A stretch of 64,000 nucleotides of DNA. It comes from Candidatus Thalassarchaeaceae archaeon. GTDB taxonomy: Archaea > Thermoplasmatota > Poseidoniia > Poseidoniales > Thalassarchaeaceae. The position numbers and the translations under genes were made by a program. Location: contig JAJPRE010000001.1 in assembly GCA_023700245.1 (NCBI GenBank), forward strand, positions 2,022 through 66,021, read 5' to 3'. Shown in pieces: positions 1 through 19,728 of the stretch (its first letter is position 1; the number at the start of each line of letters is the position of its first letter). A model generated the notes under the pieces. The model did no database searches, was not told the origin of the DNA, and saw nothing but the letters and a program-made list of their open reading frames with translations.

Positions 1-2341
1 CCCATACAACAACTATTGCAAGAGGTAGCCACATTACGAATCCTTTGAGCATTCCCCTTTGTGGTGTTTCTTCCCTTGAAACATTGATTACAACAAGCAT
101 AAGTAAAATCACTCCTGCAACTATTCCTGTGGATGCTACAGCAGATCTTGCCACATCTTCACTTATTTGAGCAAGAATCAATCCTCTTCCAGATACTTTG
201 TATTCTCCGTCATTTGCATTTAATCCATTATCTAATCCTGTAACAAAATTAACTGTTTCTTGCCAATCTAAAGATGGTGCATAGAAACTAATCACAGTTT
301 GTTTGAAATCTCCTCTTAGATATCTAAAAGTCAAATCTTGATTAGCATCAACCCAATTTTGTAATTGTAACCACTCAGGGCTATCGGTATCTATGGTATC
401 TAATATTGCTCTTAATTCAGCATCTCTAGTGGCTTCTAATTCTAATAATTCCCATACGCCAGTTTGTTCAGAAATACTAGTATCAGCATCTAAAACAGAC
501 ATTGCTTCAAGATAACTATCTCTTCCAGTATCACTGAATACTTCTGTATTAATTACAACATAAAGGGGAGCGGTATTCTGGCCAGCAAAATCATCACTCA
601 AGACAAGGAAATCAGCTACAACTGGGATTTCTTCATCTAACTGATCTCTGAAATCAAAACCAATTTCTAGTTGAGATATTCCTGCACCAATTGGTAAAGA
701 AATTAGTAAAGCAGCGACAATAACAGTCATTGGATTGAGTGCTTGCTCACCTGACCAGATTGAAAATTTACTTTCTTCAATTCTAACAGATTTTGCAATA
801 GCAATCTTTTGAGGCTTTAGAATTGTTAATAATGCCGGTAGAGCAGTAATTGAAAGTAGATAGATGAAAAATAATCCAACTGCGATTACTGTACCAAATA
901 CAACTAAGAAATTTTGAGCTGATAATCTAAAACTCAGAAATCCTACCATATCTGTAAAAATTGCAACAACTAATGCAGCAGAAGTTAGAACAGTTCCAGT
1001 TTTAATTGCCCTAGCCCTTGCTTCTGCAGAAAAATCAGCCATAGTTTCTTTTCCTTCTGAATCTAAATTTGCTAATTCTTCACGGTAACGTAAAACAACG
1101 TGCAATCCGTAATCAACACCTATTGCTAGAAGTAATATCGGTATACTATTCATAGCACCATTAAATTCAAGTTTTAGTATTCCTGCAACTCCATAAGTAG
1201 CTCCAATTGCTAATAAAGTAAGGAAAATAACAATACTAGTATCCCTTATACTTCTGAATTGCCTCCACAATATAATTCCAAGAATTACAATCGATGCACT
1301 AGTAAGAATTCCAATTTCAGCACCAAGATTACCCGCTTGCTCTTCTGCAAATCTATTAAATCCAAATACAGTAATTGTACTTCCATGGGTTTCTTGTAAT
1401 GATTCTTCTAATCCTAATGTCATTTCACTTATTATTGGTGAAACTTCAGTATCTAATTCCATATTGTGAACTGAGGGCTTTGTATCAATTGCTAATGTTA
1501 CTAATGCTATATTTGCTTCAGACCACGGATTATCTCTTGATTCTGAAGGGAACATACTCATCATTCCAGTCCTCAAATCTATTTCTTGAAGCGCACTTAA
1601 TGGTGCTAAACTGGCCATTGCTTGTCCTTGTAGAGGGGCAATTGATGCATTTTGTGTCTCATTCCTATTTTCAGTAAGGCTAGAAACCATGCCAATCAAC
1701 ATTCCAATCTTTTCAGCATTATTCTCTCCTGAATCCATTCTAGATTGCCATTCACCAGGCATTCCAACATTCCAGTTGTCTAAATCATCTGAATCAGGAT
1801 ATTCTGTAGAAGGCATAGTTGAAATAATAATCATAGCTTCAGAAATAGCAGAACTTAGATTCACATCATCAGCCATTGTCACATTCATTAATGCAGTTTC
1901 AACTGCATCTGACCAAGTATCAGATATTGGATCTTGTATTTGTTGCCAAAAAATAACTGAGCTTGCAGGACCTGAATTTGGTGATCCTCCAAATAATCCA
2001 TAATGATAATCAATCATTTTTGAATTTTCTAAATCTCCTGTATGAGTTAACATATCAGATTCTATATTTGCAAGCAAGTTCCATGTTGCTTCATTTTCTA
2101 AATCTCCAACTTCGAATCTAACAATAGATCTGACTAAATCTACATCTACTGTATATGTATCTTCTACTTCATAGAGTAAATCTGTAGTTTCATTATCTGG
2201 ATAAAAAGCATCTTCAGAATTATCAAAAACTATGTATTGAGCAAATGAGGATAAGGCTAGAATACTTATCACAGCTACTGCAATTACAGTTTTTGGTTTG
2301 TCTACAGACATTTCGCTTAAAGTATCGAATGGGTTTTTCAT
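1..2341 (-). CDS. MMPL/RND-family membrane transporter (3' end runs off the window)
   Basis: Hand translation from ATG at 2341: MKNPFDTLSEMSVDKPKTVIAVAVISILALSSFAQYIVFDNSEDAFYP..., a large extracytoplasmic loop, a TM bundle with the RND motif LAIGVDYGLHVV, then a second repeat. ATGA overlap with the stop of the upstream bcp. Not in the ORF track. Confidence 0.85.
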   Translation of the reverse strand, partial: MKNPFDTLSEMSVDKPKTVIAVAVISILALSSFAQYIVFDNSEDAFYPDNETTDLLYEVEDTYTVDVDLVRSIVRFEVGDLENEATWNLLANIESDMLTHTGDLENSKMIDYHYGLFGGSPNSGPASSVIFWQQIQDPISDTWSDAVETALMNVTMADDVNLSSAISEAMIIISTMPSTEYPDSDDLDNWNVGMPGEWQSRMDSGENNAEKIGMLIGMVSSLTENRNETQNASIAPLQGQAMASLAPLSALQEIDLRTGMMSMFPSESRDNPWSEANIALVTLAIDTKPSVHNMELDTEVSPIISEMTLGLEESLQETHGSTITVFGFNRFAEEQAGNLGAEIGILTSASIVILGIILWRQFRSIRDTSIVIFLTLLAIGATYGVAGILKLEFNGAMNSIPILLLAIGVDYGLHVVLRYREELANLDSEGKETMADFSAEARARAIKTGTVLTSAALVVAIFTDMVGFLSFRLSAQNFLVVFGTVIAVGLFFIYLLSITALPALLTILKPQKIAIAKSVRIEESKFSIWSGEQALNPMTVIVAALLISLPIGAGISQLEIGFDFRDQLDEEIPVVADFLVLSDDFAGQNTAPLYVVINTEVFSDTGRDSYLEAMSVLDADTSISEQTGVWELLELEATRDAELRAILDTIDTDSPEWLQLQNWVDANQDLTFRYLRGDFKQTVISFYAPSLDWQETVNFVTGLDNGLNANDGEYKVSGRGLILAQISEDVARSAVASTGIVAGVILLMLVVINVSREETPQRGMLKGFVMWLPLAIVVVW

Positions 2342-2811
2342 ACAATTATTCCTCTGGATTTTATTACTTTCAATGCTTTATTTACGTGACCAGTTACTCC
2401 TAACTGGCTGGTATGTGCAAAGGCAATAATTCCGGCCGGGTCTATTACGAATGTAACTCTTGCCCGCAAGAAGCCAAAGTCCTTCTTCAATTTCAGTGCT
2501 TTAGCTAATGCTCCGCCCTTATCGCTTAATAGCGGATATTGTAATTTATATCTCTTCTTGAATCGCTTATGAGATGAAACAGAATCTGAAGAAACACCGT
2601 ATAGTAAAATTCCAGCTTCACTGAATTTCTCATATCTATCTCTGAATGAACATGATTGTAATGTACAACCTGGAGATTCATCCTTAGGGTAGAAGAATAC
2701 AACCGTCCATTTATTTTCCATATTATCATTAGAAACTAGATTATTTTCATCATCATAAGATTCAAAATTAGGAAATTTAGTTCCTAAAAGATATGCATGA
2801 GCATCAGCCAT
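2338..2811 (-). CDS. bcp: Peroxiredoxin, BCP/PrxQ family
   Basis: FYPKDESPGCTLQSCSFRD (PxxxSxxC with CxxxxC) and the conserved Arg in RVTFVID. Confidence 0.9.
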   Translation of the reverse strand: MADAHAYLLGTKFPNFESYDDENNLVSNDNMENKWTVVFFYPKDESPGCTLQSCSFRDRYEKFSEAGILLYGVSSDSVSSHKRFKKRYKLQYPLLSDKGGALAKALKLKKDFGFLRARVTFVIDPAGIIAFAHTSQLGVTGHVNKALKVIKSRGIIV

Positions 2812-2815
2812 TTAG

Positions 2816-4222
2816 TTATCTCCACTTACCTAGTGAATCACTTAGCGCTGATTGAAGATCTGTATGAATAAATTCGTATCCCGATTCTTGCAAATTCTTT
2901 GGAAGTACTCTTTGACTGTCTAAGGTGAGCCTTGCTCCCATTTCTCCAAACATAATTTTCATCATAAACCCTGGAAGAGGTGCAAAGGCAGGCCTTCTCA
3001 AGACTCTACCTAGGTCCTTTGCAAATTGCTTTTGTCTTACTGGATTTGGAGCTGTTAAGTTGTATTCTCCAGATACTCCCTCACTCATCATTAAGTGATA
3101 CATGGAATATATTTGATCATCCATTGAAATCCAAGACATCCATTGCTTTCCACTTCCTATAGGGCCTCCTCCGCCCATTTTAGCAGGTAACAACATTTTA
3201 CCCAAAGCTCCACCGACTGCAGAAATTACAATACCTGTTCTCATGTGAACTGTCCTTATTCCAGCTTCCTTAGCCGGATTTGCACTATTTTCCCATTCTT
3301 TACAAACATCAGTTAGGAAATAACCATCTTCTCCACTAGTACTACTCTCATCTAATTCTTCATCTCCACGATTTCCATAGTAACCAATTGCACTAGCCAT
3401 CATGAATAAGTCAGGCTTATCTTCAAGACTCGCTAATGTTTTGCTTAGTAATTCAGTACTATTTACTCTACTATCCCTAATTGCTGCTTTTCTCTTTTTA
3501 CTCCATCTCTTGTCGCCTATTCCTACGCCACCTAGGTGGATTACTACATCAAAACCTTCCAATTCTTTTGCATTTATTTCACCCTTGTCAGGACTCCAAG
3601 ATATTTCATTTTTATTTGAATCAGCAGCTCTTCTAACTAATCTCCAAACTTCGTGATTTCCTGTATCTAAGAAAGCTACTAATTGAGTTCCGATTAATCC
3701 AGATGAGCCAACTACCAATATCTTCTTTCTTGGCATATCAAGAAACTTAGCATGATTATCTAAATCTCTTTTCAAACGAAACTCTCTTGCTTTAAACATA
3801 GATGAAATACGTCCTGTAACTAAAGATCCTCCTAGTACTTTGTCAACTAACATCCCTAATGGTCCGAATGGGACGCTATATGTCACATCATCAACAACAG
3901 TAGTAACTCCGTTTTCCTCTTTTAGATAGTGATCATGATCCCATTTCCAAAATGGACCCTTGACCATTGTATCTGCAAAGTAGTTTGGCTTATCGTACCC
4001 AGTATGTTCTGCAACCCATGTCAAATTGATGAATGGAGCACCTGGTGCTGGAAATTTGAATACTCTTTGAGACCCAACTTCTAGTGAATCATCAGCCCTT
4101 ACTTCTTGAGCAACTTCCCAAGGAGGCATTAGTCTTCTGAAAGACCCTTCATGCTCAAACCAAGCAAATGTAGTATCTATATCCGCATTAACAACAGTTT
4201 CATGTTTGTAGTTTGTTGGCAT
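2816..4222 (-). CDS. SRPBCC domain fused to TIGR01777 (YfcH-like) NAD-dependent epimerase
   Basis: N-terminal SRPBCC-like region (FRRLMPPW, GPFWKWDHDH), then GSSGLIG Rossmann motif, SAIGYYG, GSGKQWMSWI and DUF1731-like C-terminus. Confidence 0.85.
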   Translation of the reverse strand: MPTNYKHETVVNADIDTTFAWFEHEGSFRRLMPPWEVAQEVRADDSLEVGSQRVFKFPAPGAPFINLTWVAEHTGYDKPNYFADTMVKGPFWKWDHDHYLKEENGVTTVVDDVTYSVPFGPLGMLVDKVLGGSLVTGRISSMFKAREFRLKRDLDNHAKFLDMPRKKILVVGSSGLIGTQLVAFLDTGNHEVWRLVRRAADSNKNEISWSPDKGEINAKELEGFDVVIHLGGVGIGDKRWSKKRKAAIRDSRVNSTELLSKTLASLEDKPDLFMMASAIGYYGNRGDEELDESSTSGEDGYFLTDVCKEWENSANPAKEAGIRTVHMRTGIVISAVGGALGKMLLPAKMGGGGPIGSGKQWMSWISMDDQIYSMYHLMMSEGVSGEYNLTAPNPVRQKQFAKDLGRVLRRPAFAPLPGFMMKIMFGEMGARLTLDSQRVLPKNLQESGYEFIHTDLQSALSDSLGKWR

Positions 4223-4223
4223 A

Positions 4224-5768
4224 TCATAACCTCTCTATTTCCTTTGGCAATGGGGCGTTCTCTGACCAGCGACTTATGTAATTTTTGAGTTTTAACTTCC
4301 TTCTTGCACTTTCAGTTGTCATATATCGAACCTTTCCGAATACTGGTCTTTCAGGCCCCCAAGCTCTATCATGACGTCCTAAAACCCAGAATATTCCAGT
4401 GTAGGAATTTGGATCTCTTCCATCTAGTGCCCATCTATCATTTATTCGAATCATCCAATCAGCAGCAGTATTCGGGTCGGGAGCCCACTCTAAAATTTTC
4501 TTACCCCAAACCATTCTCATATAATTATGAATTATCCCAGTTCGCAAAAGCTCTCTTTGAGCTGCGTTCCAAACATCATTGTCTGTATTTGCATTTTCAA
4601 TATCTTCGAATGAGTAAGACTCTCGATCATCATCAGCATGCTCACTCAGAGATTTTTTAGCCCAATTTGGTATTGAATCAATGGATTTGTGATCTCTTCT
4701 ATAATGTGCAAAGTTGAATCCTAATTCTCTCCAAGTTATTATTTGGTCAAGGAATGACTCTTCACTTTCAGATAAACCCCACCATCCAGAACGAGTACCT
4801 TTACCCATATCTTCGAAACACGTCATGTCATATGTCCATTTACTTCTTTCAAACAACTGAACAATAACTTCGATAGTTGATAAGTGCCCGAAATGGAAGA
4901 ATGGTGAAAGTGTACTTACTGCCGGATCTTCTGTATTATTCCTATCAGAAGAATATCTTCTTAGATTTATTTCAAGAAACATTTCCATTCTTTTTTTTGC
5001 TTCAAAACGCCCACCTGGTATTTTTTTTACTGGTTTGACTACGTGATCAATATCTAGAGGGGCCATTGCTTCTTGTGATATTTTTCCTGTTTCTGCAACT
5101 CTCCATAACCACTCTAGAGGAGTAAATTGAACTTCTATAGCAGCAAAAAGAGAAACCATTTCTAATTCATCAAACATTAAATTTTTAGCAACATTTTTCA
5201 TTGAATTTCTCAAAGGTAAGTTTAGAAGAGCATCTGCCATACTTCTTTGTACATGTTTTCTAAATGAGTAGGCTGTTAGATGTTCTTTGCCCGCCCATGC
5301 CATTGGTAAAATTCCATTTGAATCTGCTGCTTCTAATTGCACCTTACATATTAAAGCGGCCCTTTCCATAACCAATCTTGGTAAATATGTAGGATAATCA
5401 TCAATTATAACTGCACAAGCGTGACTTGATAATTTCTTTAGCAAATCAACTCCAGCATCTTTGTGAGTTTCAACCCAGGGTAAATATGTGACCTTATTTT
5501 TTGCAAATATTTTAGAATTATCAAGCATACCTTGAACCGTGAAAGCCAATATTCTTTCATTAGCCCATTCGTGCCTAATTGACATACACTCTACAACCAT
5601 GACCGGCTTGTCCATTTCTAGAGATAGCTCAACCGCTCTGTCCAAGGCAGAATTGTAATGAAATCTTCTAGATGAAGTCATCCAATATAGTATGTAGTCG
5701 CCGTTAACATTGGTTTCAAGGGAATTTAATTTGCGAATCCTAGATTCTTTTTCTTGAACCACAACCAT
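4224..5768 (-). CDS. phr: Class II CPD DNA photolyase
   Basis: ILYWM, SxLSPFFHFGHLS, HNYMRMVWGKKILEW, DGRDPNSYTGIFWVLGRHDRAW and FGKVRYM are class II photolyase signatures. Confidence 0.9.
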   Translation of the reverse strand: MVVVQEKESRIRKLNSLETNVNGDYILYWMTSSRRFHYNSALDRAVELSLEMDKPVMVVECMSIRHEWANERILAFTVQGMLDNSKIFAKNKVTYLPWVETHKDAGVDLLKKLSSHACAVIIDDYPTYLPRLVMERAALICKVQLEAADSNGILPMAWAGKEHLTAYSFRKHVQRSMADALLNLPLRNSMKNVAKNLMFDELEMVSLFAAIEVQFTPLEWLWRVAETGKISQEAMAPLDIDHVVKPVKKIPGGRFEAKKRMEMFLEINLRRYSSDRNNTEDPAVSTLSPFFHFGHLSTIEVIVQLFERSKWTYDMTCFEDMGKGTRSGWWGLSESEESFLDQIITWRELGFNFAHYRRDHKSIDSIPNWAKKSLSEHADDDRESYSFEDIENANTDNDVWNAAQRELLRTGIIHNYMRMVWGKKILEWAPDPNTAADWMIRINDRWALDGRDPNSYTGIFWVLGRHDRAWGPERPVFGKVRYMTTESARRKLKLKNYISRWSENAPLPKEIERL

Positions 5769-5896
5769 ATGTACAACTACCTGTAATTTTCGTCTACTTT
5801 CAACTCACCTATAAGTAAGTGTTTTCAAATATTCAAAATTATATTTGTAATGGAAATAAACATCCATTCATAAGCAGCTAGTTTCGCTCAGCAAAT

Positions 5897-6505
5897 ATGA
5901 CTATCCAAAAATGGAAAGGTGCTGAACCAATAGATATTGAAGCCGACGCCATGCTCCCAACTGAGCATGGGAATTTCAAAATAAGGGTCACTGTAGACTC
6001 AAAGGGAAAGGAACACTCTCTTCTATACACAGGAGACTTACAATCTTGCCATGCACCATTAATCAGGATTCATTCTGAATGCCTCACAGGAGATGCGTTT
6101 GGATCAATGAAATGCGATTGTGGCCCACAACTAAGACTATCAATGCAAAAAATCCAGGAAGAAGGGACTGGAGCTATTCTTTACTTGCGACAAGAAGGTC
6201 GTGACATTGGACTTCACTCTAAAATTAAAGCATACGCATTGCAAGATAAAGGATACGATACACTAGATGCAAACCTCGCATTAGGCCTACCAGCAGATGC
6301 AAGAGAATATTCAATAGCAGCTACCATGCTGAAGGAAATGGGGATATCTCAAGTGCGCATGATGACAAATAATCCTCTCAAAGTAAAGGGGTTAGAAGAG
6401 AACGGCATAGAAGTTTTAGAGCGCAAAGAACACATAAGTGGAATAGGACAATTTAACAAAGATTATCTCGCAACAAAGAAAAGGAGAATGGGGCACATAC
6501 TCTAA
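5897..6505 (+). CDS. ribA: GTP cyclohydrolase II (bacterial type)
   Basis: RIHSECLTGDAFGSMKCDCG zinc motif, YLRQEGRDIGL, TNNPLK, YLATKKRRMGH. Confidence 0.95.
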   Translation: MTIQKWKGAEPIDIEADAMLPTEHGNFKIRVTVDSKGKEHSLLYTGDLQSCHAPLIRIHSECLTGDAFGSMKCDCGPQLRLSMQKIQEEGTGAILYLRQEGRDIGLHSKIKAYALQDKGYDTLDANLALGLPADAREYSIAATMLKEMGISQVRMMTNNPLKVKGLEENGIEVLERKEHISGIGQFNKDYLATKKRRMGHIL

Positions 6506-6546
6506 AATTTGGAGTAAATTCTATTTAATTTTAAGGAGAATGAATT

Positions 6547-7020
6547 ATGACATCACTAATCGGATCTATAGCACCAATGTTTGCCCTAAAAACTAGTGAT
6601 AATGAAGACTTTTCATTATCAGACCTAGATGGTCAATGGAAAGTAATTTTCTTCTATGCAAAAGATGGCTCTCCAGCGTGCAAGAGAGGATGTCTTTCTT
6701 TCAAAGACCAGTATGATTTATTTCGTTCTCTGACTCCTCCAGTAGAAGTTATTGGGATAAGTCAAGATTCAGTCGAACAACATAAAGAATTCAAAGAAGA
6801 CTTAAAATTGCCCTTCACATTACTTTCAGACCCTGGAAGGAAAGTAGCATTAGAATATGAAGTAGCTACTCACCTTGGAGTATTTCCTGCAAAATCTACT
6901 TTCTTATTAGGGCCTGATAATACCATTCACCATGTTTACGACTGGCTATTCAGACCTAGAACCCATGTTGCAAAGATACTTTCTTCAATGAGTGAAATTA
7001 CAGATGGAGCAGGATTCTGA
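6547..7020 (+). CDS. Divergent BCP-like peroxiredoxin
   Basis: AhpC/TSA fold (IGISQDSVEQHKEF, LPFTLLSD) but an altered active site: FYAKDGSPACKRGC and AKSTF. Confidence 0.8.
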   Translation: MTSLIGSIAPMFALKTSDNEDFSLSDLDGQWKVIFFYAKDGSPACKRGCLSFKDQYDLFRSLTPPVEVIGISQDSVEQHKEFKEDLKLPFTLLSDPGRKVALEYEVATHLGVFPAKSTFLLGPDNTIHHVYDWLFRPRTHVAKILSSMSEITDGAGF

Positions 7021-8396
7021 TGAATTGGACTACTTTATTAGTCGATGCTGGCCTCTCAGAAAGAGAAGCCGAAGTAGTAATTGTCCTCTCAAATAAATCT
7101 AATCTCAAAGCAAGTGAATTAGCAAAAGAACTCGGAACAACTCGGTTAGATGCTTACAATTCTCTCGAGAGATTACAAAGTACAGGATTAGTAACTGTTA
7201 CCGTGGACAGGCCAATGAAATTTTCAAGTCCTCCATTAAAAAATGTATTAGAGCATTTGATAAATATTAGAAAGGAACAACTCTCTAAGATTCAACAAGG
7301 GTTTGAAGATATCAAACAAGGTAATTCACAATATGTACAAGAAGATGTAACAGAACCAGCAGAAGTAGAGCCAAAATTTGCTGTATTGAAGGAAAGAATT
7401 CATATCTTTACAAAGATGGAAAAGATGGCAAAAGATTCTCAACATTCCCTTATCCTAACATTAGGAAAATTTGGAATATTACACTTGTGTAGAAGTACAG
7501 CTCTTTCTGAAGTCAATAAGGCTGCACAACGAGGAGTCGAAGTCAGAGTCATAGCGCAACTAGATCGCAGAACAATTCGATTCTTCTCAGAGTTAGATCC
7601 TTCAGTTTCAGTTCGTCATAGTGATGATTTAGAATCTCAAGGCACAGTAGTAGATTCCTCTGAAGCAATTCAATATCTAAATACAGAAGAAAATCCAGTA
7701 GGTCGTGGAAAAACTGATGCAGCTTTATTGATTGAATCGGCACCGTTTGCAGACTCACAGAGAAATCTAATCGAAAGTATTTGGGAAGAAGCCATACCAT
7801 TTTCTTTAGCATCAAAAAGATTCACTGAAGAAAGAATCGTTGATCCTCTCAAACTAACATTAGACGGTGGATCGTTCTTGGATAGAATTCGTGATGTTTT
7901 ACAAATATCTGATGAATTACCTGAATCAGACTCTCCATTCAATCTTGATGCTTTCATGGCCTCTGGATTAGAAATAAGTGACGCAAGAAAGAAGTTAGGA
8001 ACTGGGGGAATCGCTAGCCTTAGCACATTCGGTATTGATGTAGGATCTCTTCTACGTCAAGTTGGAAATAGAATAGGTGAAGAATTAGCATTCAGCCTAA
8101 GGAAGATAGATGGGCATGTAGAATTTCTTAGTGAAATGATGGATTGGTATGAATATGCTGGTTTAGGTGAATTAAACTATGATTCCGACCCCACTTTCCA
8201 TATCAAAGTCCACCTATCATCCAACACAGATAATTTGGAAGAACTTCCTTTGTGGGAATTGGACGATGGCATAATTGAAGGTACATTGATGAGCAGATAT
8301 TCAGCAATAAATGAAGTATCAATTGAAAGAATTCAATCTCCAGAAAATTCCGATGAATTTTGTAGATATAATTTGATATTATCTGATGATAATTAG
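7020..8396 (+). CDS. TrmB-family transcriptional regulator with PLD-like effector domain and V4R-like C-terminus
   Basis: N-terminal wHTH GLSEREAEV...ASELAKELGTTRLDAYNSLERLQSTGLV; AAQRGVEVRVI effector domain; C-terminal GNRIGEELA...AGLGEL...GIIEGTL...FCRYNL pattern resembling V4R. Confidence 0.8.
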   Translation: MNWTTLLVDAGLSEREAEVVIVLSNKSNLKASELAKELGTTRLDAYNSLERLQSTGLVTVTVDRPMKFSSPPLKNVLEHLINIRKEQLSKIQQGFEDIKQGNSQYVQEDVTEPAEVEPKFAVLKERIHIFTKMEKMAKDSQHSLILTLGKFGILHLCRSTALSEVNKAAQRGVEVRVIAQLDRRTIRFFSELDPSVSVRHSDDLESQGTVVDSSEAIQYLNTEENPVGRGKTDAALLIESAPFADSQRNLIESIWEEAIPFSLASKRFTEERIVDPLKLTLDGGSFLDRIRDVLQISDELPESDSPFNLDAFMASGLEISDARKKLGTGGIASLSTFGIDVGSLLRQVGNRIGEELAFSLRKIDGHVEFLSEMMDWYEYAGLGELNYDSDPTFHIKVHLSSNTDNLEELPLWELDDGIIEGTLMSRYSAINEVSIERIQSPENSDEFCRYNLILSDDN

Positions 8397-10421: not shown

Positions 10422-10475
10422 ATAATATTGGGCAAACTCTATTTTAATCATGCCTTTCTATCAAGTCATGCATAA

Positions 10476-10655: not shown

Positions 10656-10750
10656 AATAATCGGGGGATGCTATCTTAACTTTAATATTATTACGTATTA
10701 ATTCTTTAACTAATTAAATACTTTAAGTATTACTCCCCAATCGTGTATTC

Positions 10751-11497: not shown

Positions 11498-11498
11498 T

Positions 11499-12260: not shown

Positions 12261-12285
12261 AGTCCGCTCTCTATTAGATGGCTAA

Positions 12286-12732
12286 TTATGATTGATTATT
12301 AGGCGTTCCTCTTACTAACGCGTAATTCAATGCAAGACCTATCGGCATTAGCATTACGCCAAAAAATACTGAAGTAATTGTTATCCACTTATCACATTTT
12401 GCTGCCATACATCTTTTCCAAATCCATCTTGTTACAAATATATCTCCAGCTACCATGTGAGCCCATGCGGCTGAGGCACCAGCTTTTGTTCCTAATAAAT
12501 CAGCCAATCCTTGTAGTGCATTTTCTGGATTCATAGAGTCTTTTGCTAACTCTACAAGGCCAGAAGGATCAGAGAATGAAAGTATAAACCAAATAGCAAT
12601 CGGACCTAAGAAAAACCAAGGTCCCTGCATTAATTGTTGAGTCTTTTCATGTTCAGGGTAAACCATCATAGCAACCCAAAAAGGTCCTACCCACATTGTC
12701 GAGAAGAAGAATGATAAGTCAAAGATGTCCAT
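12286..12732 (-). CDS. ABA4-like (DUF4281) membrane protein
   Basis: Four TM segments; AWAHMVAGDIFVTRWIW resembles the WxHxLxxDLFxGRW motif, followed by LMPIGL. Confidence 0.75.
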   Translation of the reverse strand: MDIFDLSFFFSTMWVGPFWVAMMVYPEHEKTQQLMQGPWFFLGPIAIWFILSFSDPSGLVELAKDSMNPENALQGLADLLGTKAGASAAWAHMVAGDIFVTRWIWKRCMAAKCDKWITITSVFFGVMLMPIGLALNYALVRGTPNNQS

Positions 12733-12742
12733 ATTTTTTACC

Positions 12743-13330
12743 TCAATTTAATATATTTTTTATTTCATCAACAATTTCTGATGTTGGCCAATAAGTCTTA
12801 GAAGACCAGATTAATTTTCCTGTTTCGTCCATAATTTGTAAAGTAGGGGTAGAAGGATTTCCGAATGAATCATAAATGGAGTATTGACTTTCTTGCCCTG
12901 TATCCAAATTTACTATCGGTGTATTTTCCTGCGGTAATGCAAGAGTCCAAGAAACTGGATTAGAGGAATTCTTGCCATAAGCTTCTTCTACATAAGATGG
13001 AGATTCAAAAGATGAATATCTGTGAATACTGAGGACTGAAGAATTACTTATGTTTCCACTCTCAACTTCATCCGAAATCATATCAGTCCAAGAATGACAT
13101 CCTCTACAACCAGCAGCTACCCAAATTAATAACACAGGACCTTCGGATACATATTCTTGTAAATCCAAAGCAGTATTATTACTATCATCACCCATTATGG
13201 GTGAACTAAATGATATTCTTTCTGGAGCAGGAGCAATTTCTTCAGGCTCAATCATCTCAGACTTTTCTTCAACACATCCAGATAATGAACCAACAATAAT
13301 AATTAGTGAAAAGAAAAATGCTATTTTCAT
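12743..13330 (-). CDS. Thioredoxin-fold (CxxC) lipoprotein
   Basis: Lipobox LSGC, WVAAGCRGC, and cis-Pro region STPTLQIMDETG. Confidence 0.7.
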   Translation of the reverse strand: MKIAFFFSLIIIVGSLSGCVEEKSEMIEPEEIAPAPERISFSSPIMGDDSNNTALDLQEYVSEGPVLLIWVAAGCRGCHSWTDMISDEVESGNISNSSVLSIHRYSSFESPSYVEEAYGKNSSNPVSWTLALPQENTPIVNLDTGQESQYSIYDSFGNPSTPTLQIMDETGKLIWSSKTYWPTSEIVDEIKNILN

Positions 13331-14895
13331 AATTCAACCTTCATTTTAGATTTAATCTTAGGTTTTTTAATGTCTTCAAACCAAGTGTCTACGCCATTCC
13401 AATCTGGTTCTATTCCTAAATCTGCACAAATTAACTTAGCACTTATTCTACCACTTTCGAAAATAGTCGGAAGGCCACTCCCAGGGTGTGTTCCTCCTCC
13501 AACTAAAAATAAATCATTTAACTCCTCAAAACGATTTTGAGGCCTTCTCCACAACATTTGATCTAGTCCATGAGCTAAATTGAAAACTGCACCTTTGTAG
13601 ATATCTCGTGCACCCCAATCATCAGGAGTGACAATTGTTTCTGAAACAATATGTTCCTTCAAATCATCATATCCTAGTTTTTTCATGGTTTCGAGGACAA
13701 CATCTCTATATTCATGTTTTATTTCTTCCCAATTTATTGAATCATGTACATTAGATACCGGAACTAGGACATATATTGTTGAGTGGCCTTCTGGAGCCAT
13801 TGATGGATCTATCAAACAAGCATTTTGAACGTACAATGATGGATCATCCCACGTAATTTTATTTTCAGTAACATCCTTTAGATTAGTATGATAGTCTTTA
13901 GAAGCATAAATTTGATGATGATCTAAATCGTATTTCTTATCTATGCCAAGATATAGCATGAATGTCGAGCATGAATAAGATTTTTCATCTAATTTCTTAT
14001 TTGACCATCTCTTTCTAAGCTTATCTGGAATTAATCCCTTCATCCCAGTTGCGAAATCAACATTCATAACATATTTTTTTGCTGTATGGATTCCAGTGCC
14101 TGTTTTTACTCCAACTATCTTTTTACCTTCGAAAATACATTCCTCGACTGGCTCATTAAGGCATATCTCTACTCCTAATTCTTTAGCTAAAACTCCCATT
14201 CTCTCGGTTACTGTTCCAAGGCCACCTTTGGCATGATATATGCCATACTCCAACTCTAAAAATGATAGTATTGTGAATAAACTTGGGGCCTGAAATGGAG
14301 ACATACCCAAATACTTCGTTTGAAAACTCATTGCTAATTGCATCCTGTCATCTTCAAAGAATTTGGATAAATCTGATGCAACACTTCTCCATGGACGAAG
14401 AACTTTAGCAACTCTAAGTGCACGTTTATTTGCCAAATCTGTCCAACTTGTCCAGGGAGAATTGAGACAATTTTTAGACAACTTTAATTTTTTCCTGTTA
14501 TCTATTACATAATTTCTAAATCCTTCTGCATCTTTTTCACCGCACAGTTCTTTGATTTGTTCTACCATATATTCAACATCAGTACTTGCGTTTAAGGAAC
14601 CCCCTTCTCCGAAAACCAACCTATAATTAGGATCGAGTCTGATTAAGTTTAATTCTTCGTGGGCATCCTTTCCAATTGCCTGAAATATCTCTTCAATAAT
14701 TTCGGTGTAATGGAAAAAGGTAGGTCCGTTATCATAATGGAAACCATCCTTTTCGAAGACCTTGGTTCTTCCTCCCACGGAACTAGTTTTTTCTAATAAT
14801 TTGACCTTAAGGCCTGCTTTTGCTAATAGTAAAGAACATGCTAGACCACCAGGTCCGGCGCCTACTATGATTACGTCGTTATCTGAAGACTCCAT
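13327..14895 (-). CDS. crtI: Phytoene desaturase (CrtI family)
   Basis: IVGAGPGGL FAD motif, YDNGPT, QTKYLGMSPF, SCSTFMLYLG, LFLVGGGTHPGSGLPTIFESG. Start moved to ATG 14895, about 22-28 nt below a TATTAAG box. Confidence 0.92.
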   Translation of the reverse strand: MESSDNDVIIVGAGPGGLACSLLLAKAGLKVKLLEKTSSVGGRTKVFEKDGFHYDNGPTFFHYTEIIEEIFQAIGKDAHEELNLIRLDPNYRLVFGEGGSLNASTDVEYMVEQIKELCGEKDAEGFRNYVIDNRKKLKLSKNCLNSPWTSWTDLANKRALRVAKVLRPWRSVASDLSKFFEDDRMQLAMSFQTKYLGMSPFQAPSLFTILSFLELEYGIYHAKGGLGTVTERMGVLAKELGVEICLNEPVEECIFEGKKIVGVKTGTGIHTAKKYVMNVDFATGMKGLIPDKLRKRWSNKKLDEKSYSCSTFMLYLGIDKKYDLDHHQIYASKDYHTNLKDVTENKITWDDPSLYVQNACLIDPSMAPEGHSTIYVLVPVSNVHDSINWEEIKHEYRDVVLETMKKLGYDDLKEHIVSETIVTPDDWGARDIYKGAVFNLAHGLDQMLWRRPQNRFEELNDLFLVGGGTHPGSGLPTIFESGRISAKLICADLGIEPDWNGVDTWFEDIKKPKIKSKMKVEL

Positions 14896-15009
14896 ATTAC
14901 AAAGCGATGTCGAAGACTTAATACTTATAATGAGTCGTTTTAAAAATAGAGAATGAATTGTTGTGGTTACAAACACCCATATAAAAGGGGGATGGAAAAC
15001 CACGGCGCC

Positions 15010-16968
15010 ATGTATAACTCAAAAGTTATGATAGCCTTGCTAATGACCGCCAGTCTTGCATTGTCTCCGATCGTTGTCGCAGATGATACCCAAGACATAC
15101 CTACGAATGCCGTTAATACAGGCAATCACGATTCCTTAGTAGCAGCTTTGAGTCATGCAGGTTTAGTAGATACTTTGTCCGGTGAAGGCCCCTTTACAGT
15201 CTTCGCCCCCACAGATGAAGCATTCGCAGCTGCTGGTATCGATCTCTCAACTTTCGATACTGATGCGGAGAATGCAACATTAACTGATATCTTACTATAC
15301 CACGTCTACTCTGGTGCTGTAAATGCAGCAGATGTAACTGACGGTCTGACTGTTCAAATGGTCAACGGGGACGATGCTACTTTCTCAGTTACAAATGGAA
15401 CAGTAATGGTTGGCGGTGCTACAGTAACAACAGCTGATGTTATGGCTTCAAATGGAGTGATTCACGTAATTGATACAGTTCTAATGCCACCAGTGCCTTA
15501 CACAGGTGTAGGAATTTGTTACAACTCAGTTACTCACATGATTGCAGCAGGATCCACAATGGAAGAATGTAACTCTTACATGTACGTAGAGAACTATTCA
15601 ATGGGCGGTCAATCAATCACAGGATGTTACAACACGGCATCCCATGCTTTGACAGAAGTTTCACAAACAATCTGTGAATCATACACATGGACTGCTCCTG
15701 TGGATATACCAACATCAGCAATGGCTACAGGTATACACACATCATTAGTAGCAGCATTAAGTGCAGCAAATCTGGTAAGCGCTCTACAAGCAGATGGGCC
15801 ATTTACAGTATTCGCTCCAACTGATGCGGCGTTTGCAGCAGCAGGAATCGATTTGAGCGCATTTGTAACAGATGAAGAAATTGCAACTCTTGCAGACATA
15901 TTGACCTATCACGTTGTATCAGGTCAAGTAATGTCTACTGATTTATCCGACGGAATGACTGCTACAGCATTGAATGGAGATGATTTAACTTTCACAATTT
16001 CTGACGGTACAGTAATGGTCGACGGAGCAATGGTCACTCTTGCAGATGTACCATCTTCAAATGGAGTAATCCACGTAGTAGATGCAGTATTGATGCCACC
16101 CGCAGATCTCGTGGACATACCATCAACAGCTATATCAACTGGAATCCATACTTCATTAGTCGCCGCTCTTACAGCTGCTAACTTAGTATCAGCATTACAA
16201 GCAGATGGACCATTTACAGTATTCGCACCAACTGACGCAGCATTCACAGCAGCAGGAATCGATTTAGATTCCTTTGTAACGGATGAAGAAATTGCAACTC
16301 TTGCAGATATTCTGACTTATCACGTAGTAGCGGGACAGGTTTTGTCCACAGACCTAACTGATGGTATGACAGCAACAGCATTGAACGGAGACACTCTAGA
16401 CTTTACTGTTTCAACAGATGCAGTTACAGTTTCAGGAGCAACAGTAACATTAGCGGACGTATTAACTACTAACGGTGTAATCCATGTAATTGATACAGTA
16501 TTAATGCCACCAGCTGATGTAGTAGCTTTACCTGATGGATGTGATTATCTTGTTTCTGTAGACGATACAGGATATGCTTTCGATCACACTGTGCTAAACG
16601 TAGCAGTTGGAGAGACAGTTTGCTGGGTCTGGACAGATTCAGCAATGGCTCACAATGTTGCTGAAATTGCAGAGGAAGGAGACACCATGAGGATGATAGG
16701 CGGATTATACAGTGGAGCAGCTGCTACAACTGTAGACTATAGATTAACATTTGATGAAGATCAGACATTTAACTACGTCTGCGAACCTCATGCATCTATG
16801 GATATGGCTGGAAAAGTCATTGTTGGCTCTGGAGTAGAAGCAGTTCCTGAACCAGTACCCGTTGAAGACTCTGATGCTACACCAGGATTCGCATCCTCAT
16901 TAGCAATAGTATCTATTCTTGGAGCAGTTTTAATTGCTCAAAGAAGGAATAACGAAAGGTCCGATTAA
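15010..16968 (+). CDS. Surface protein: signal peptide, 3 fasciclin (FAS1) domains, type-1 copper cupredoxin domain, PGF-CTERM anchor
   Basis: Three GPFTVFAPTDxAF...ILxYHV...NGVIHVxDxVLMPP units; AHNVA...YVCEPHASMDMAG copper ligands; TPGF + TM + RR tail. TATAAAA at 14980-14986 favours start 15010. Confidence 0.9.
   Translation: MYNSKVMIALLMTASLALSPIVVADDTQDIPTNAVNTGNHDSLVAALSHAGLVDTLSGEGPFTVFAPTDEAFAAAGIDLSTFDTDAENATLTDILLYHVYSGAVNAADVTDGLTVQMVNGDDATFSVTNGTVMVGGATVTTADVMASNGVIHVIDTVLMPPVPYTGVGICYNSVTHMIAAGSTMEECNSYMYVENYSMGGQSITGCYNTASHALTEVSQTICESYTWTAPVDIPTSAMATGIHTSLVAALSAANLVSALQADGPFTVFAPTDAAFAAAGIDLSAFVTDEEIATLADILTYHVVSGQVMSTDLSDGMTATALNGDDLTFTISDGTVMVDGAMVTLADVPSSNGVIHVVDAVLMPPADLVDIPSTAISTGIHTSLVAALTAANLVSALQADGPFTVFAPTDAAFTAAGIDLDSFVTDEEIATLADILTYHVVAGQVLSTDLTDGMTATALNGDTLDFTVSTDAVTVSGATVTLADVLTTNGVIHVIDTVLMPPADVVALPDGCDYLVSVDDTGYAFDHTVLNVAVGETVCWVWTDSAMAHNVAEIAEEGDTMRMIGGLYSGAAATTVDYRLTFDEDQTFNYVCEPHASMDMAGKVIVGSGVEAVPEPVPVEDSDATPGFASSLAIVSILGAVLIAQRRNNERSD
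15700..16520 (+). repeat. Intragenic tandem duplication (FAS1 repeats 2 and 3, 411-nt period)
   Basis: GTGGATATACC at 15700 recurs as GTGGACATACC at 16111; near-identical protein with many synonymous differences. Confidence 0.85.
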
Positions 16969-17348
16969 TTACTTAATCTGACTTCAACCCAACCGTCAAG
17001 TTCCCTTGCTGTGTGAACAGCGAGGGGACTTGGCCTTCTCATTTTACCAAGTAATCTTCCATACATTGGAAAAAGAGGGAATGGCGACCATTCCTTTACT
17101 TCTCCACTATCTAAATCATATTTTGTTTGATGGAGTGGACAAGTTATACATCCATCTTTCACCTTTCCCCCATACGCTAAAGGCCAAGCCATATGCCTAC
17201 AGAGAGCATCAGTTACACGTATTTCTTCATCTTCTTTTAGGATCATAATGCTACGTAAACCAATATTTTTCATTTTTTTCTTTCCTGATTTAATTTTATC
17301 AGATTTAATTACTCGATGCCATACATCACTATCCAAGGGTAAACTCAC
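16965..17348 (-). CDS. Rieske [2Fe-2S] ferredoxin
   Basis: CRHM...CPLH ligands, YDLDSG; GTG start. Confidence 0.88.
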   Translation of the reverse strand: MSLPLDSDVWHRVIKSDKIKSGKKKMKNIGLRSIMILKEDEEIRVTDALCRHMAWPLAYGGKVKDGCITCPLHQTKYDLDSGEVKEWSPFPLFPMYGRLLGKMRRPSPLAVHTARELDGWVEVRLSN

Positions 17349-17479
17349 GCATCCTAGTAAGAATCAATATCATATCAATGCTGTTATCTTAACATTTCCT
17401 TTTTTTCAAGTAAATATCTTAAAATTAAAACATATAACCGGGCATAGTTTAATATAAGATTTTTAATATAACTTATGAT

Positions 17480-18172
17480 ATGGCTGATTATGAAATCATC
17501 AACTCTGAAGAATTAAGAATGGTTAAAGTTACATTAAATGGTGAAACTGTACGTGCAGAAAGTGGTGCTTTACATTACATGATTGGAAATATAGAAATGA
17601 AGACCAAAAAACCTAGTGTTGGGGGATTTCTGAAATCATTAGCAACCAGTGAATCCATCTTTAGGCCAACCTATACAGGAACCGGAGAAGTCTTTTTCGG
17701 ACCGCCAACATTTGGAGAATATCACATAATGGAATTAAATGGAGACTCATTGGTCTTGGATAAAGGAGCTTATATTTGCTCTTCTGAAGGGATTGAGGTA
17801 GGTATTATGAGAAATAAAGGGCTTAAATCAATGGCTTTTGGTGGAGAAGGCATATGGCAAACTACTGTTTCAGGTACTGGAACCCTAGTATATTATTCTC
17901 AAGGCCCTATCCAAGAAATTAATTTACAAAATACTACGATTACAGTAGATGGTGACTTTGCAGTTGCTAGAGATTCATCATTACAATACCAGACAACTTT
18001 ACTAGGAAAAGGATTGATGTCAAAGATGGCTGGAGGAGAAGGTTTCGTCAATGTAATTTCAGGTACTGGAAAAGTATATCTTTCACCAATTCCAAGCAGA
18101 TTCAATAATCTAGCAAGTAGGGTCATCGGCGATACAATCTCTGGATTAATCCCGTTTGTGGGTAAAAAATAA
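17480..18172 (+). CDS. AIM24-family protein
   Basis: VRAESGAL, GGEGIWQTTVSGTG, GGEGFVNVISGTGKVYL repeats. Confidence 0.85.
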   Translation: MADYEIINSEELRMVKVTLNGETVRAESGALHYMIGNIEMKTKKPSVGGFLKSLATSESIFRPTYTGTGEVFFGPPTFGEYHIMELNGDSLVLDKGAYICSSEGIEVGIMRNKGLKSMAFGGEGIWQTTVSGTGTLVYYSQGPIQEINLQNTTITVDGDFAVARDSSLQYQTTLLGKGLMSKMAGGEGFVNVISGTGKVYLSPIPSRFNNLASRVIGDTISGLIPFVGKK

Positions 18173-18213
18173 CTCGAATGAAGCATTCATAAGTTTATTT
18201 TTTTGATTGGAAT

Positions 18214-19221
18214 TTATTTCCAAAGTCCTAATAGTGAAAATGCAAAACCAATCTTTTTCATGAAGCCTAGATTTAACTTTCTTGATAAAACATCACCATG
18301 TCTATTTTCTGCTTCTGACAATATTTCAGAGTAAACTGCACAAATTATGGACGGAGAAACTCTTGAATCTTCATTCAATAACGGAATTAATCTTTTTGCA
18401 TTATCCCTATGAATTTTAGTTCTAAAAATATAATGACGCATAAATGATTTCCATGAGTCTTTTTGCGGTAACTGAGGATCATCCAAATTAGTATAATCTA
18501 TTCCAAATCTTGTTAATTCTTCAGTAGGAAGATATACTCTTCCCTTATTGTAATCTTCTTGAATATCTCTCAATATATTTACCATTTGAAGGAAAATACC
18601 CATTTCTTCAGCATGTTCTCTTGCATCAGGATTAGAATACCCATAAATTTCTATCAGAACTAAACCTACTGTTGAAGCAACTTTGAAACAATAGCCCCTA
18701 ACTTCCTCAAAAGTCTTGTAATTAGTAGGAAATAAATCATCCTCCATTCCATCAATTAACATTTCCAAATATTCAATATTTATTGAAAAATTATTAATCG
18801 TATCTTTAAGTGCAATAAATATTGGATGGACAACCGATTCATTATTTCTGATTCTATTTAGATTATCCCTAAACCAAAGTAGGGCCAATACCCTTTGTAA
18901 ATGAGAAAAATCACCATTTACTGGTTCTTCTTGCTTTTCAATTGCCAATGATATTGCCCTGTCTTCAGATCTCATTTGCAGATTCATTGATGTCTCATTA
19001 GATAAATAATTAAGATTAGGTAACCAATCTCCATCTACTACATCATCCACTCTTCTGCAAAATGCATATACGGCATAAACAGATCTTCTTTTTTTGGTCG
19101 GTAGATGTCTGAAAGATCGTAAGAATGATGTTGATGATTTACGTGTTATTTCTTCACAATACTTGTAAGCCTCTTCGATGGAATCATTTGATAATTTTGG
19201 TTCACTATTAATCAGAACCAT
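18214..19221 (-). CDS. crtB: Phytoene synthase
   Basis: YAFCRRVDDVVD, YCFKVASTVG, QMVNILRDIQED, GRVYLP. Confidence 0.92.
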   Translation of the reverse strand: MVLINSEPKLSNDSIEEAYKYCEEITRKSSTSFLRSFRHLPTKKRRSVYAVYAFCRRVDDVVDGDWLPNLNYLSNETSMNLQMRSEDRAISLAIEKQEEPVNGDFSHLQRVLALLWFRDNLNRIRNNESVVHPIFIALKDTINNFSINIEYLEMLIDGMEDDLFPTNYKTFEEVRGYCFKVASTVGLVLIEIYGYSNPDAREHAEEMGIFLQMVNILRDIQEDYNKGRVYLPTEELTRFGIDYTNLDDPQLPQKDSWKSFMRHYIFRTKIHRDNAKRLIPLLNEDSRVSPSIICAVYSEILSEAENRHGDVLSRKLNLGFMKKIGFAFSLLGLWK

Positions 19222-19318
19222 ACTAAATCTTATGCCCCTCTACATATCAACGACTGTTCCAATTATGAATACATTTGAATAATAATTTAGCGTACATTCA
19301 AGACACCCATGTATATGG

Positions 19319-19648
19319 ATGGATATGGAGGACCATAACCTGTTAACAACTATCGAGCGTGATGAAGAATCTTGTATACTGAGATTCAAAGATGGTAAGT
19401 CATTTCAAGTTGATTATTTAGAAATTCGTTTTCGTTGCCGATGTGCTAAATGTAAACCAAGGCAAGAGAATGAACAAAGAATAGTGGAATTTCATGAAGA
19501 AATTTCTAGACTGCGTATAGAAAAACCCAGTGTTGAACCAGTTGGACATTATGGTATCCAATTAACATGGCCATCAGGTTGTTCAAGTGGCATACATTCC
19601 TTTTCTCATCTACGATCAATTGCAGAAGAATCTGGAAATGAAATTTAA
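19319..19648 (+). CDS. DUF971 / gamma-butyrobetaine hydroxylase N-terminal-like protein
   Basis: RFRCRCAKC, VGHYGIQLTW, SGIHSFSHLR. Confidence 0.8.
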   Translation: MDMEDHNLLTTIERDEESCILRFKDGKSFQVDYLEIRFRCRCAKCKPRQENEQRIVEFHEEISRLRIEKPSVEPVGHYGIQLTWPSGCSSGIHSFSHLRSIAEESGNEI

Positions 19649-19728
19649 TTTGCGAAGCAGTCAAATGCAAAGTACTCTACCACCAAATGTCGAAGAATAG
19701 GGTCGCCCCTTTCTCGATAGGTGATATA

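Follow-up and report, generated by a model that had tools for sequence, protein, structure and literature searches.

Which of the genes crowded around a single regulator at the left end of this stretch of archaeal DNA belong together, and is it life in sunlight that joins them? The 64,000-nucleotide stretch that we analysed (hereafter the window) comes from contig JAJPRE010000001.1 of a Candidatus Thalassarchaeaceae archaeon, of the order Poseidoniales. The names under which relatives of the regulator appear in public sources (Thalassarchaeaceae/Poseidoniales) agree with this placement in Marine Group II. It opens with a class II cyclobutane pyrimidine dimer (CPD) photolyase, a GTP cyclohydrolase II (RibA), peroxiredoxins of the BCP type and carotenoid genes, set around a TrmB-type regulator whose C-terminal domain is predicted to adopt the V4R fold. 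An original prediction, made from the letters alone, had taken these genes for a photoprotection and carotenoid island of about 19 kb. We found that the conserved unit is a core of ~7 kb plus the crt genes, and thus smaller than the 19.6 kb of the whole region. With moderate confidence, we regard window positions 2816-9690 together with crtI, crtB and the ABA4-like gene as this genome's version of a Marine Group II cluster that is order-wide and serves life in sunlight.

Gene identities were established from a listing of open reading frames (ORFs) and from Pfam and NCBIfam family scans of the window proteins, and every gene named in the original prediction was recovered in its place. Two tightly packed operons, with gaps or overlaps between genes of -4 to +41 nt, diverge from a control region of 128 bp (5769-5896) that carries two inverted RAACAY-N4-TATA elements. 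The left operon, on the minus strand, contains the photolyase, an oxidoreductase, a first peroxiredoxin (BCP1) and an MMPL transporter; the right operon, on the plus strand, contains RibA, a second peroxiredoxin (BCP2), the regulator, a UbiB-family kinase and a short-chain dehydrogenase (SDR). The photolyase (4224-5768, -) scores 334 bits with TIGR00591, under the cut-off of 550, and matches solved photolyases along its full length, as expected of a class II CPD photolyase: residues 12-504 align with 8oet (E 3.6e-65) and 2xry (E 4.5e-64), and there is a further match to 3umv (E 1.7e-51), the last two being structures that we take to be class II photolyases. Next to it lies an NAD-binding oxidoreductase (2816-4222, -) that belongs to the TIGR01777 (YfcH-like) family both by score (321.3 bits, cut-off 207.35) and by its DUF1731 domain (PF08338, E 5.5e-17). 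Its extra 165 N-terminal residues gave no Pfam match at E≤1 and matched solely the N-terminus of PDB 3oh8 (residues 16-118, E 0.0024), a protein likewise built in two parts; an SRPBCC identity for this domain is plausible.

On the other side of the control region, RibA (5897-6505, +) exceeds the cut-offs of both NF001591 (247.4 bits, cut-off 148) and TIGR00505 (235.9 bits, cut-off 205.85). It is followed by BCP2 (6547-7020, +; PF00578, E 7.3e-31), by the regulator of 458 aa (7020-8396, +; PF01978, E 5.7e-10) and by the kinase (8386-9690, +; PF03109, E 1.4e-44), which scores 158.6 bits with TIGR01982, under the cut-off of 487.55, and is hence a member of the ABC1/UbiB atypical kinase family only and not a UbiB equivalog. 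The carotenoid genes lie further to the right: an ABA4-like membrane protein (12286-12732, -; PF14108, E 3.1e-22), a phytoene desaturase of the CrtI family (13327-15003, -; TIGR02734 453.3 bits, over the cut-off of 238.1) and a member of the squalene/phytoene synthase family (18214-19221, -; PF00494, E 1.6e-62) that we call CrtB by context. The latter is assigned at family level (PF00494, 212 bits), its equivalog scores being 205 bits for HpnD (cut-off 278.6) and 167.5 bits for cyanobacterial CrtB (cut-off 550), and its adjacency to CrtI in 19 loci favours a phytoene synthase.

The regulator was searched for in 151 genomes of the order, and up to 20 kb were fetched around 32 orthologues and 8 paralogues. 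An orthologue was present in 101 of the 151 genomes at 47-98% identity, with a separate class of paralogues at 32-39%. The 32 orthologue loci, onto which the window proteins were compared, come from 17 genera and both large families, and some of them end at contig ends. One core recurs among them, in which the SRPBCC-like/TIGR01777 oxidoreductase follows the class II photolyase on one strand and, diverging from these, RibA, BCP, the TrmB-family regulator and the UbiB/ABC1 kinase follow each other, often continued by CrtI and CrtB. BCP2 was found in all 32 loci and always adjacent to the regulator; photolyase, oxidoreductase and RibA were each present in 30, UbiB in 28, CrtI in 22, CrtB in 19, and the ABA4-like gene, a frequent neighbour of CrtI, in 11. 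At the eight paralogue loci none of these island genes was found. This grouping is more than chance, and the divergent operons around one TrmB-type regulator with a V4R-fold domain, as originally proposed, proved to be a conserved cluster. In several loci of Poseidoniaceae type (e.g. L026, L027, L030, L032 and L033) the genes from RibA through BCP, regulator, UbiB and CrtI to CrtB are contiguous on one strand, and the photolyase operon begins with a NUDIX gene. The regulator and UbiB are separated in one genus by the gene of a DUF1295 membrane protein (L024:10285-11106, -).

The proposed length of the unit did not survive this comparison. The SDR was found in 7 of the 32 loci, BCP1 in 6, a Rieske protein and a CxxC lipoprotein in 4 each, the MMPL transporter in 3, a fasciclin-copper protein in 2, and RsuA and the membrane protein at 10751-11497 in one locus each; AIM24 was at none of them. 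We class MMPL, fasciclin, Rieske, SDR and BCP1 as lineage-specific additions.

The same comparison bears on whether the region could be a bacterial genomic island that was recently imported. RibA, class II photolyase, TIGR01777 and MMPL families are common in bacteria, and horizontal transfer of the Marine Group II photolyase is inferred in PMC6461757 and PMC10480650. Yet GC content is 0.34-0.40 both inside and outside the region, which is not compositionally foreign since it does not differ from the rest of the window; the arrangement is common to both families, the regulator does not extend beyond the order in the genomes that were sampled, and the junction with a Pus10-L21e-RpoF housekeeping block is kept in several genera. 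With a native composition and a shared arrangement we saw no sign of recent bacterial import, and consider such an origin very improbable.

We then asked how the core is built from the loci in which part of it is missing. Eight genomes that have CrtI without regulator, photolyase or rhodopsin were inspected at locus level. At five of these eight loci (L052-L054, L056 and L057) the oxidoreductase abuts UbiB/CrtI, and the genes missing are exactly four, namely photolyase, RibA, BCP and the regulator. Two loci with the complete set (L010 and L011) come from the same genus as three of these five, in which the Pus10 block follows as usual. The four genes are gained or lost as one block, and we refer to them as the cassette. 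What remains is an older backbone, formed by the TIGR01777 oxidoreductase facing the UbiB/ABC1 kinase, CrtI, CrtB and the ABA4-like gene (the latter also present at the regulator-less loci L053 and L058), that is, isoprenoid and carotenoid lipid genes. It is photolyase, the extra RibA and BCP that go with the regulator, and not the carotenoid genes: genomes that lack the cassette still keep oxidoreductase, UbiB and CrtI in place.

The RibA of the cassette is an extra copy. A second RibA, 58% identical to it, lies on contig C7 of the same genome, and at least two RibA genes were found in 96 of the 101 regulator-bearing genomes, against one or none in 49 of the 50 others. RibB and RibH are located elsewhere in the genome. 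We rejected a role in making a deazaflavin antenna, for which the CofH-like matches (281 and 273 bits) fall below the cut-off of 374; because of these scores, and because RibB and RibH lie elsewhere, we read the extra RibA as a flavin-supply copy.

The cassette is present almost only in rhodopsin-bearing genomes. Regulator and rhodopsin occurred together in 90 of the 151 genomes, the regulator alone in 11, rhodopsin alone in 1 and neither in 49; for regulator and photolyase the corresponding numbers were 96, 5, 1 and 49. The match between regulator and rhodopsin holds within genera that are split for these traits. CrtI was distributed more broadly (113 of 151). At one locus (L016), where the photolyase is absent, the rhodopsin gene immediately precedes RibA, BCP and the regulator on their strand. 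As a separate observation, the genus of this locus (genomes G077, to which it belongs, G019 and G099) has the regulator, RibA, BCP and rhodopsin, and no photolyase orthologue; the regulator of G019 may be broken, because it matches in two separate pieces with the middle missing. Outside the order, a search of ~165 genomes from other orders of the phylum gave one weak partial match to the regulator (32% identity). The original prediction would have been contradicted by genes equally common in lineages away from light, and the fact that the core follows rhodopsin through 151 genomes answers part of that comparison. Co-occurrence of photolyase and proteorhodopsin in this order has already been published (PMC6461757 and PMC10480650); in the literature searched we found no description of the cluster, of the extra RibA, of the regulator or of the tie to crt genes.

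A neighbourhood kept by descent alone, in which the genes work independently and the TrmB-type protein regulates unrelated targets such as those of sugar metabolism, would agree with the public annotation of the regulator as a sugar-specific TrmB. It would also fit the fact that parts of the 19.6 kb, such as RsuA, are clearly unrelated. We consider it quite unlikely, because gene order and strands are maintained in two families at a protein identity of 47-66%, with flanks that vary, because four genes are lost together, and because both the presence of the cassette and the copy number of RibA track rhodopsin. Moreover, the match to the sugar-binding domain of TrmB is limited to its N-terminal half (2f5t residues 110-241), and the C-terminus of the regulator is modelled as a V4R fold.

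This domain structure was derived from sequence profiles and predicted models. The protein starts with a winged helix-turn-helix (wHTH) of TrmB type (PF01978, residues 9-69, 39.3 bits against a cut-off of 25.6). In an AlphaFold model built from 27 sequences (pLDDT 76), residues 1-262 match TrmBL2 and TrmB with a wHTH, a long helix or coiled coil and the PLD-like TrmB subdomain (TrmBL2 5bpd: Foldseek E 3.9e-14, VIA Z 16.2 over 239 residues; TrmB 2f5t: VIA Z 15.8, root-mean-square deviation 2.5, 130 residues; 3qph: Z 14.8), and this part of the model has the fold expected of a TrmB-type protein. The matches to the sugar-binding domain of 2f5t and 3qph stop at chain residue 241, and in the model residues 327-458 adopt a V4R fold instead of the C-terminal sugar-binding subdomain of TrmB. 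When the C-terminal domain was modelled alone (pLDDT 80), the top Foldseek match was MJ1460 (2oso, E 8.7e-4), and VIA gave Z 10.4 over 119 residues for PoxR (5fru), 9.5 for DmpR (6iy8) and 9.5 for 2oso, a range in which BcsD, TRAPP Bet3 and H-NOX also score. A profile of the regulator run against PDB sequences again found MJ1460 as its best match (E 0.015), and the last 120 residues match positions 118-235 of the NCBIfam MsvR model (E 1.5e-9), with 37.9 bits for the whole protein against a cut-off of 220. As modelled, the C-terminal domain has the V4R fold.

MsvR-type V4R domains carry conserved cysteines, and the island regulator does not. The four cysteine columns are occupied in 8/8 paralogues, and in 0, 0, 0 and 3 of 19 island orthologues. 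The island regulator resembles a duplicate in which sensing through thiols was abandoned, and because the cysteines have been lost it is, by analogy with related domains, more likely to sense a small hydrophobic ligand than redox state via thiols. The paralogue itself (L035-L042, 32-39% identity) stands in unrelated gene contexts and is found also in genomes without the cassette; given this presence and its four invariant V4R cysteines, it may be a true MsvR-like redox sensor.

What DNA could such a regulator recognise? In the short (~110 bp) intergenic regions between photolyase and RibA of this family we observed, on each side and inverted, [C/A]AAACAC or AAACAY followed by four variable nucleotides and a TATA-like box. 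A weight matrix built from intergenic sites gave 79 matches in a scan of the 1.47-Mb genome, and the two copies in the window, at 5856-5873 (+, 18.5 bits) and 5809-5826 (-, 17.3 bits), ranked second and third of them. The top match in the genome lies 23 nt before a gene for a plastocyanin-like protein of 166 aa (C23:17495-17995, -; L046:11495-11995). That gene is 8 kb away from the rhodopsin gene on the same contig, and a MORN-repeat Ser/Thr kinase of 1034 aa lies between them.

Within the 32 loci, a broader pattern was counted when it fell 12-54 nt before an in-frame start. It preceded 18 of 29 RibA genes, 15/30 photolyases and 16/28 UbiB genes, as well as 7/22 CrtI and 5/19 CrtB genes. Before operon-internal genes it was found once for BCP2 (1/32) and never for the regulator (0/31) or the oxidoreductase (0/30). 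Other ORFs had it in 9 of 231 cases: seven were the NUDIX gene at the head of the photolyase operon, one was a thiamin pyrophosphokinase and one an Fpg-type glycosylase. This last gene (L023:13053-13880, -) encodes a DNA glycosylase of the Fpg/Nei type, which repairs oxidative DNA damage. At the eight regulator-less loci the pattern never preceded CrtI, and it was present in just one of the eight. In the window, the element stands before photolyase, RibA and CrtB, the latter preceded by GAACAG-N4-TGATAT that ends 22 nt from the start (19261, -; 11.5 bits). The fasciclin gene is preceded by CAAACAC-N3-TATAAAA, with a spacer of 3 nt (score 10.3 at 14969), and CrtI by a near-match with one mismatch, AAACGA-N4-TTATAA (14940-14925, -), read by eye. 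We rejected the idea of a generic promoter feature: AAACAC is rare (8 of 568 upstream regions), and the stretches preceding TATA-like hexamers show no AACAC consensus, with ACAC in 1 and AACA in 5 of 61 TATA-bearing upstream regions.

Part of the region is also represented in RNA. Four metatranscriptome runs of one study, used as contigs at ≥93% identity, cover the oxidoreductase, RibA, BCP2, regulator, SDR, ABA4-like, CrtI and fasciclin genes. RibA and BCP2 are joined on one contig, and the fasciclin stretch 15097-17203 is covered in all four runs. The parts that are not covered (e.g. 17343-20000 and most of the photolyase gene) are uninformative.

From these data, we propose the following scenario for the sunlight cluster. 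The class II CPD photolyase would repair UV lesions using FAD and blue light, the extra RibA would raise the supply of flavin and the BCP peroxiredoxin would remove peroxides. The cassette that encodes them sits at the divergent promoter of the backbone. The regulator would bind at or beside the RAACRN-N4-TATA element that heads the photolyase, RibA, UbiB, CrtI and CrtB units, thereby controlling itself and coupling damage repair to pigment synthesis. The element is the only regulatory evidence, and it is from its distribution that we infer binding by the regulator; a response of the cluster to light is likewise what we infer.

Several observations weigh against this scenario. The element sits at the position of a transcription factor B (TFB) recognition element. 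Its distance is constant to its own TATA box and not to the inverted partner, the partners lying 17-18 bp apart in most genera and 31 bp apart in this one, and because of this fixed spacing a promoter element fits better than the operator of a dimer. The pattern is lacking at roughly half of the starts of photolyase, RibA and UbiB, the regulator-less locus L058 keeps it before UbiB and CrtB, and a loose version precedes 37 of 1199 frames of the genome, including the rhodopsin gene. Rhodopsin was discarded as a regular member of the regulon, since the pattern occurs at only 4/20 rhodopsin promoters in relatives; several further ones look similar by eye (TAACAC-N4-TTATA) and were left uncounted. 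On the side of the regulator, the Pfam V4R model (PF02830) gave no match to it at E≤1, and five genomes that bear it show no photolyase orthologue. The pigment genes are independent of the cassette, seeing that CrtI is found in 13 regulator-less and in 23 rhodopsin-less genomes. Because the genomes compared are related to each other, counts among them overstate independence; the presence of rhodopsin is a mere proxy for life in light; and the RNA contigs tell of presence in RNA libraries, not of levels, strands, ends or day/night behaviour.

Some of these points would be accommodated if the element were a special TFB-recognition/TATA variant, recognised by a basal factor (an alternative TFB, for instance), or a mark of strong promoters; the genes would then be co-regulated, and the neighbouring regulator would act otherwise. 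The place of the element directly upstream of TATA, its spacing, its retention at one regulator-less locus and its presence before the plastocyanin-like gene, the rhodopsin gene and the fasciclin-copper gene, the latter covered by all four RNA runs, speak for such a variant. Its rarity in the genome, its absence before CrtI in 8/8 regulator-less loci (and from 7/8 of them altogether) and its concentration where the regulator's own two operons begin speak against it, and we hold this variant for possible but rather less probable than binding by the regulator.

If the backbone does not depend on the cassette, what does it make? CrtI exceeds its family cut-off, as given above, and the pathway would end at lycopene as far as recognised enzymes go. 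The genome to which the window belongs is 82% complete, and genes missing from scans of it are not thereby shown to be absent. Within this limit, we found neither Blh (PF15461) nor a cyclase of CrtYcd type (PF18916), and for a cyclase of CrtY type (PF05834) there were only weak matches to the N-terminal FAD fold. Rhodopsin is present in 91 of the 151 genomes, 90 of which have CrtI; Blh is present in 16, all from the other family and none from this one. Marine Group II is cited as rhodopsin-bearing and blh-lacking in PMC7734400.

All this would suit a different role for CrtB, CrtI and the ABA4-like protein, perhaps with the oxidoreductase, SDR and Rieske protein, namely that they mainly make retinal for rhodopsin through a route standing in for the missing lycopene cyclase and Blh. 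The near-universal CrtI of rhodopsin-bearing genomes, the scarcity of Blh and the failure to find a cyclase of either type in this genome (itself only 82% complete) are what one would expect from such a route. We nonetheless find it somewhat doubtful: CrtI is kept in 23 rhodopsin-less genomes, UbiB, the oxidoreductase and the ABA4-like gene likewise remain in genomes without rhodopsin, and Pfam scans recognised no fold or motif of a cleavage enzyme in the accessory genes. Since the backbone persists without rhodopsin, it should have a role beyond the supply of retinal.

A second photolyase-like protein was noticed in the same genome. It combines a class II photolyase-like domain (residues 27-461, TIGR00591 234 bits) with a C-terminal FAD amine-oxidase/phytoene-desaturase-like domain, has at least 758 aa (C45:3-2276, -; L048) and is ~29% identical to the island photolyase. 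Similar matches occur in ~50 genomes of the order, and the fusion could be a photoreceptor or photoenzyme. In a subset of genomes from the other family, only a few kb separate Blh, a CrtI paralogue (~31% identity) and this photolyase-oxidase fusion (e.g. G040:C10:134-6975 and G082:C21:26444-32993), in what looks like a second light-related cluster, absent from the family of the genome studied here.

Bacterial regulons under CarH/LitR, which use B12, and under sigma-E/ChrR combine photolyase, crt genes and accessory oxidoreductases. Together with the haloarchaeal Bat regulon, these bacterial light and photo-oxidative regulons are the nearest parallels to our cluster, in which photolyase, carotenoid genes, an oxidoreductase of TIGR01777/SDR type and antioxidant enzymes are likewise grouped, apparently under shared control, and tied to light. 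The cluster differs from them in its archaeal TrmB-family regulator with a V4R fold, in having an extra RibA and a BCP in the core, and in that its carotenoid genes are not bound to the presence of the regulator. The absence of CarH/LitR, already remarked in the original prediction, was borne out: there is no CarH/LitR in the window, the B12-binding domain PF02310 is found in the genome in two frames only (154 and 1106 aa), and since no MerR-family protein (PF13411) was found in this 82%-complete genome we see no CarH/LitR there either.

In Halobacterium salinarum, Bat and the small zinc-finger protein Brz control bop, crtB1 and brp (PMC2253796 and PMC3184054). The likeness is that of a local archaeal regulator that couples rhodopsin with carotenoid (crtB) expression through a shared upstream element, which in our case is a prediction; unlike our cluster, the haloarchaeal regulon as described there serves the production of retinal and bacteriorhodopsin, not DNA repair or the removal of peroxides. 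MsvR is a redox regulator of methanogens in which conserved V4R cysteines mediate redox sensing and which binds TTCG-N7-9-CGAA, according to PMC3729527. Like the island regulator, it has an HTH domain and a C-terminal V4R domain and stands beside oxidative-stress genes, which it controls along with its own promoter in that account. The island regulator, by contrast, lacks the four cysteine columns, has an N-terminal half like that of TrmB and TrmBL2 with a PLD-like domain, and lies near an element unlike that reported for MsvR.

With TrmB, TrmBL1 and TrmBL2 of Thermococcales the regulator shares, on the model, the wHTH, the long helix and the PLD-like N-terminal subdomain of the effector domain; it differs from them in its C-terminal part, predicted to be V4R, and in a context of photolyase, flavin and peroxiredoxin genes instead of sugar transport or glycolysis. 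The phenol-sensing V4R domains of PoxR, DmpR and MopR have the same fold as the one predicted for its C-terminal domain and set a precedent for a pocket that takes a small hydrophobic ligand, yet they are N-terminal sensors of bacterial sigma-54 activators, and identity with them is 9-10%.

The remaining genes of the region are accessory or unrelated to the cluster. On the left, BCP1 (2338-2811, -; PF00578, E 2.2e-35) is 34% identical to BCP2, and the MMPL/HAE3-type RND transporter (2-2341, -; PF03176, E 1.1e-18; TIGR00921 78 bits, far under the cut-off), the last gene of the photolyase operon in this genus, extends past the start of the window and ends at contig base 1642. On the right, the SDR (9687-10421, +; PF13561, E 3.2e-53) closes the operon here and is followed by an uncharacterised membrane protein (10751-11497, +), by the RsuA pseudouridine synthase (11499-12260, -) and, beyond the ABA4-like gene, by a CxxC lipoprotein-like protein (12743-13330, -) with a weak thioredoxin-fold signal (AhpC-TSA, E 0.038 only). 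The fasciclin-copper surface protein (14953-16968, +) combines three fasciclin domains (PF02469, E 1.1e-99), a plastocyanin-like domain (PF00127, E 9.2e-13) and a PGF-CTERM signal (TIGR04126). The listed starts of this gene and of CrtI are probably too early, and revised starts would remove their overlap: the likelier start of CrtI is the ATG at 14896 (-), giving MESSDNDVIIVGAGP, with relatives aligning from residue ~39, and that of the fasciclin protein is the ATG at 15010, which yields an N-terminus like a signal peptide.

Between it and CrtB lie a Rieske [2Fe-2S] ferredoxin-like protein (16965-17348, -; PF00355, E 1.3e-15) and AIM24 (17480-18172, +). The region ends with a DUF971/GBBH-like_N protein (19319-19648, +; PF06155, E 3.9e-16) at the junction with the housekeeping block, a junction also found at L010, L011, L013-L015 and L045. 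The membrane protein, RsuA, the CxxC lipoprotein, AIM24 and DUF971 were not among the genes listed in the original prediction. To its right are Pus10, L21e, RpoF and KsgA, and the remaining window holds housekeeping genes, large peptidases and nuo genes. Farther along, ARAGORN found a single tRNA-like gene (43605-43691, +; 87 nt) to which no anticodon could be assigned and which may be an intron-bearing archaeal tRNA. Two proteins, of 1460 aa (48171-52553, +) and 420 aa (32442-33704, +), had no Pfam match at E≤1e-4 and adjoin an S8 subtilase of 1500 aa with CARDB domains.

More speculatively, the cysteine-less V4R domain might bind a hydrophobic molecule derived from light or pigment, be it retinal, an apocarotenoid, a carotenoid or a photoproduct of flavin or lipid, and the regulator might thus set the sunlight programme of Marine Group II at the RAACRN-N4-TATA promoters of photolyase, the extra RibA, peroxiredoxin, UbiB-CrtI-CrtB and, in some lineages, rhodopsin. 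It would have arisen within the order by duplication of a cysteine-bearing MsvR-like sensor, and would spread or be lost with the cassette. We put this forward tentatively, as an extension that is rather unlikely.

Marine Group II are among the most abundant archaea of the surface ocean, and how they sense sunlight and cope with it has been inferred only from rhodopsin and photolyase genes; to our knowledge they have never been cultured. With the cluster described here, two separate marker genes become a defined unit: a rhodopsin-linked cassette of four genes, with a candidate regulator and element, and a contrast to a cysteine-bearing paralogue. The regulator, its putative 128-bp target DNA and the crt genes are testable in vitro or heterologously, with no need of a culture. 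As a genomic marker, the cassette distinguishes light-adapted and dark-adapted lineages more sharply than photolyase does by itself, and the carotenoid backbone is relevant to the origin of retinal in those members that have rhodopsin and lack blh.

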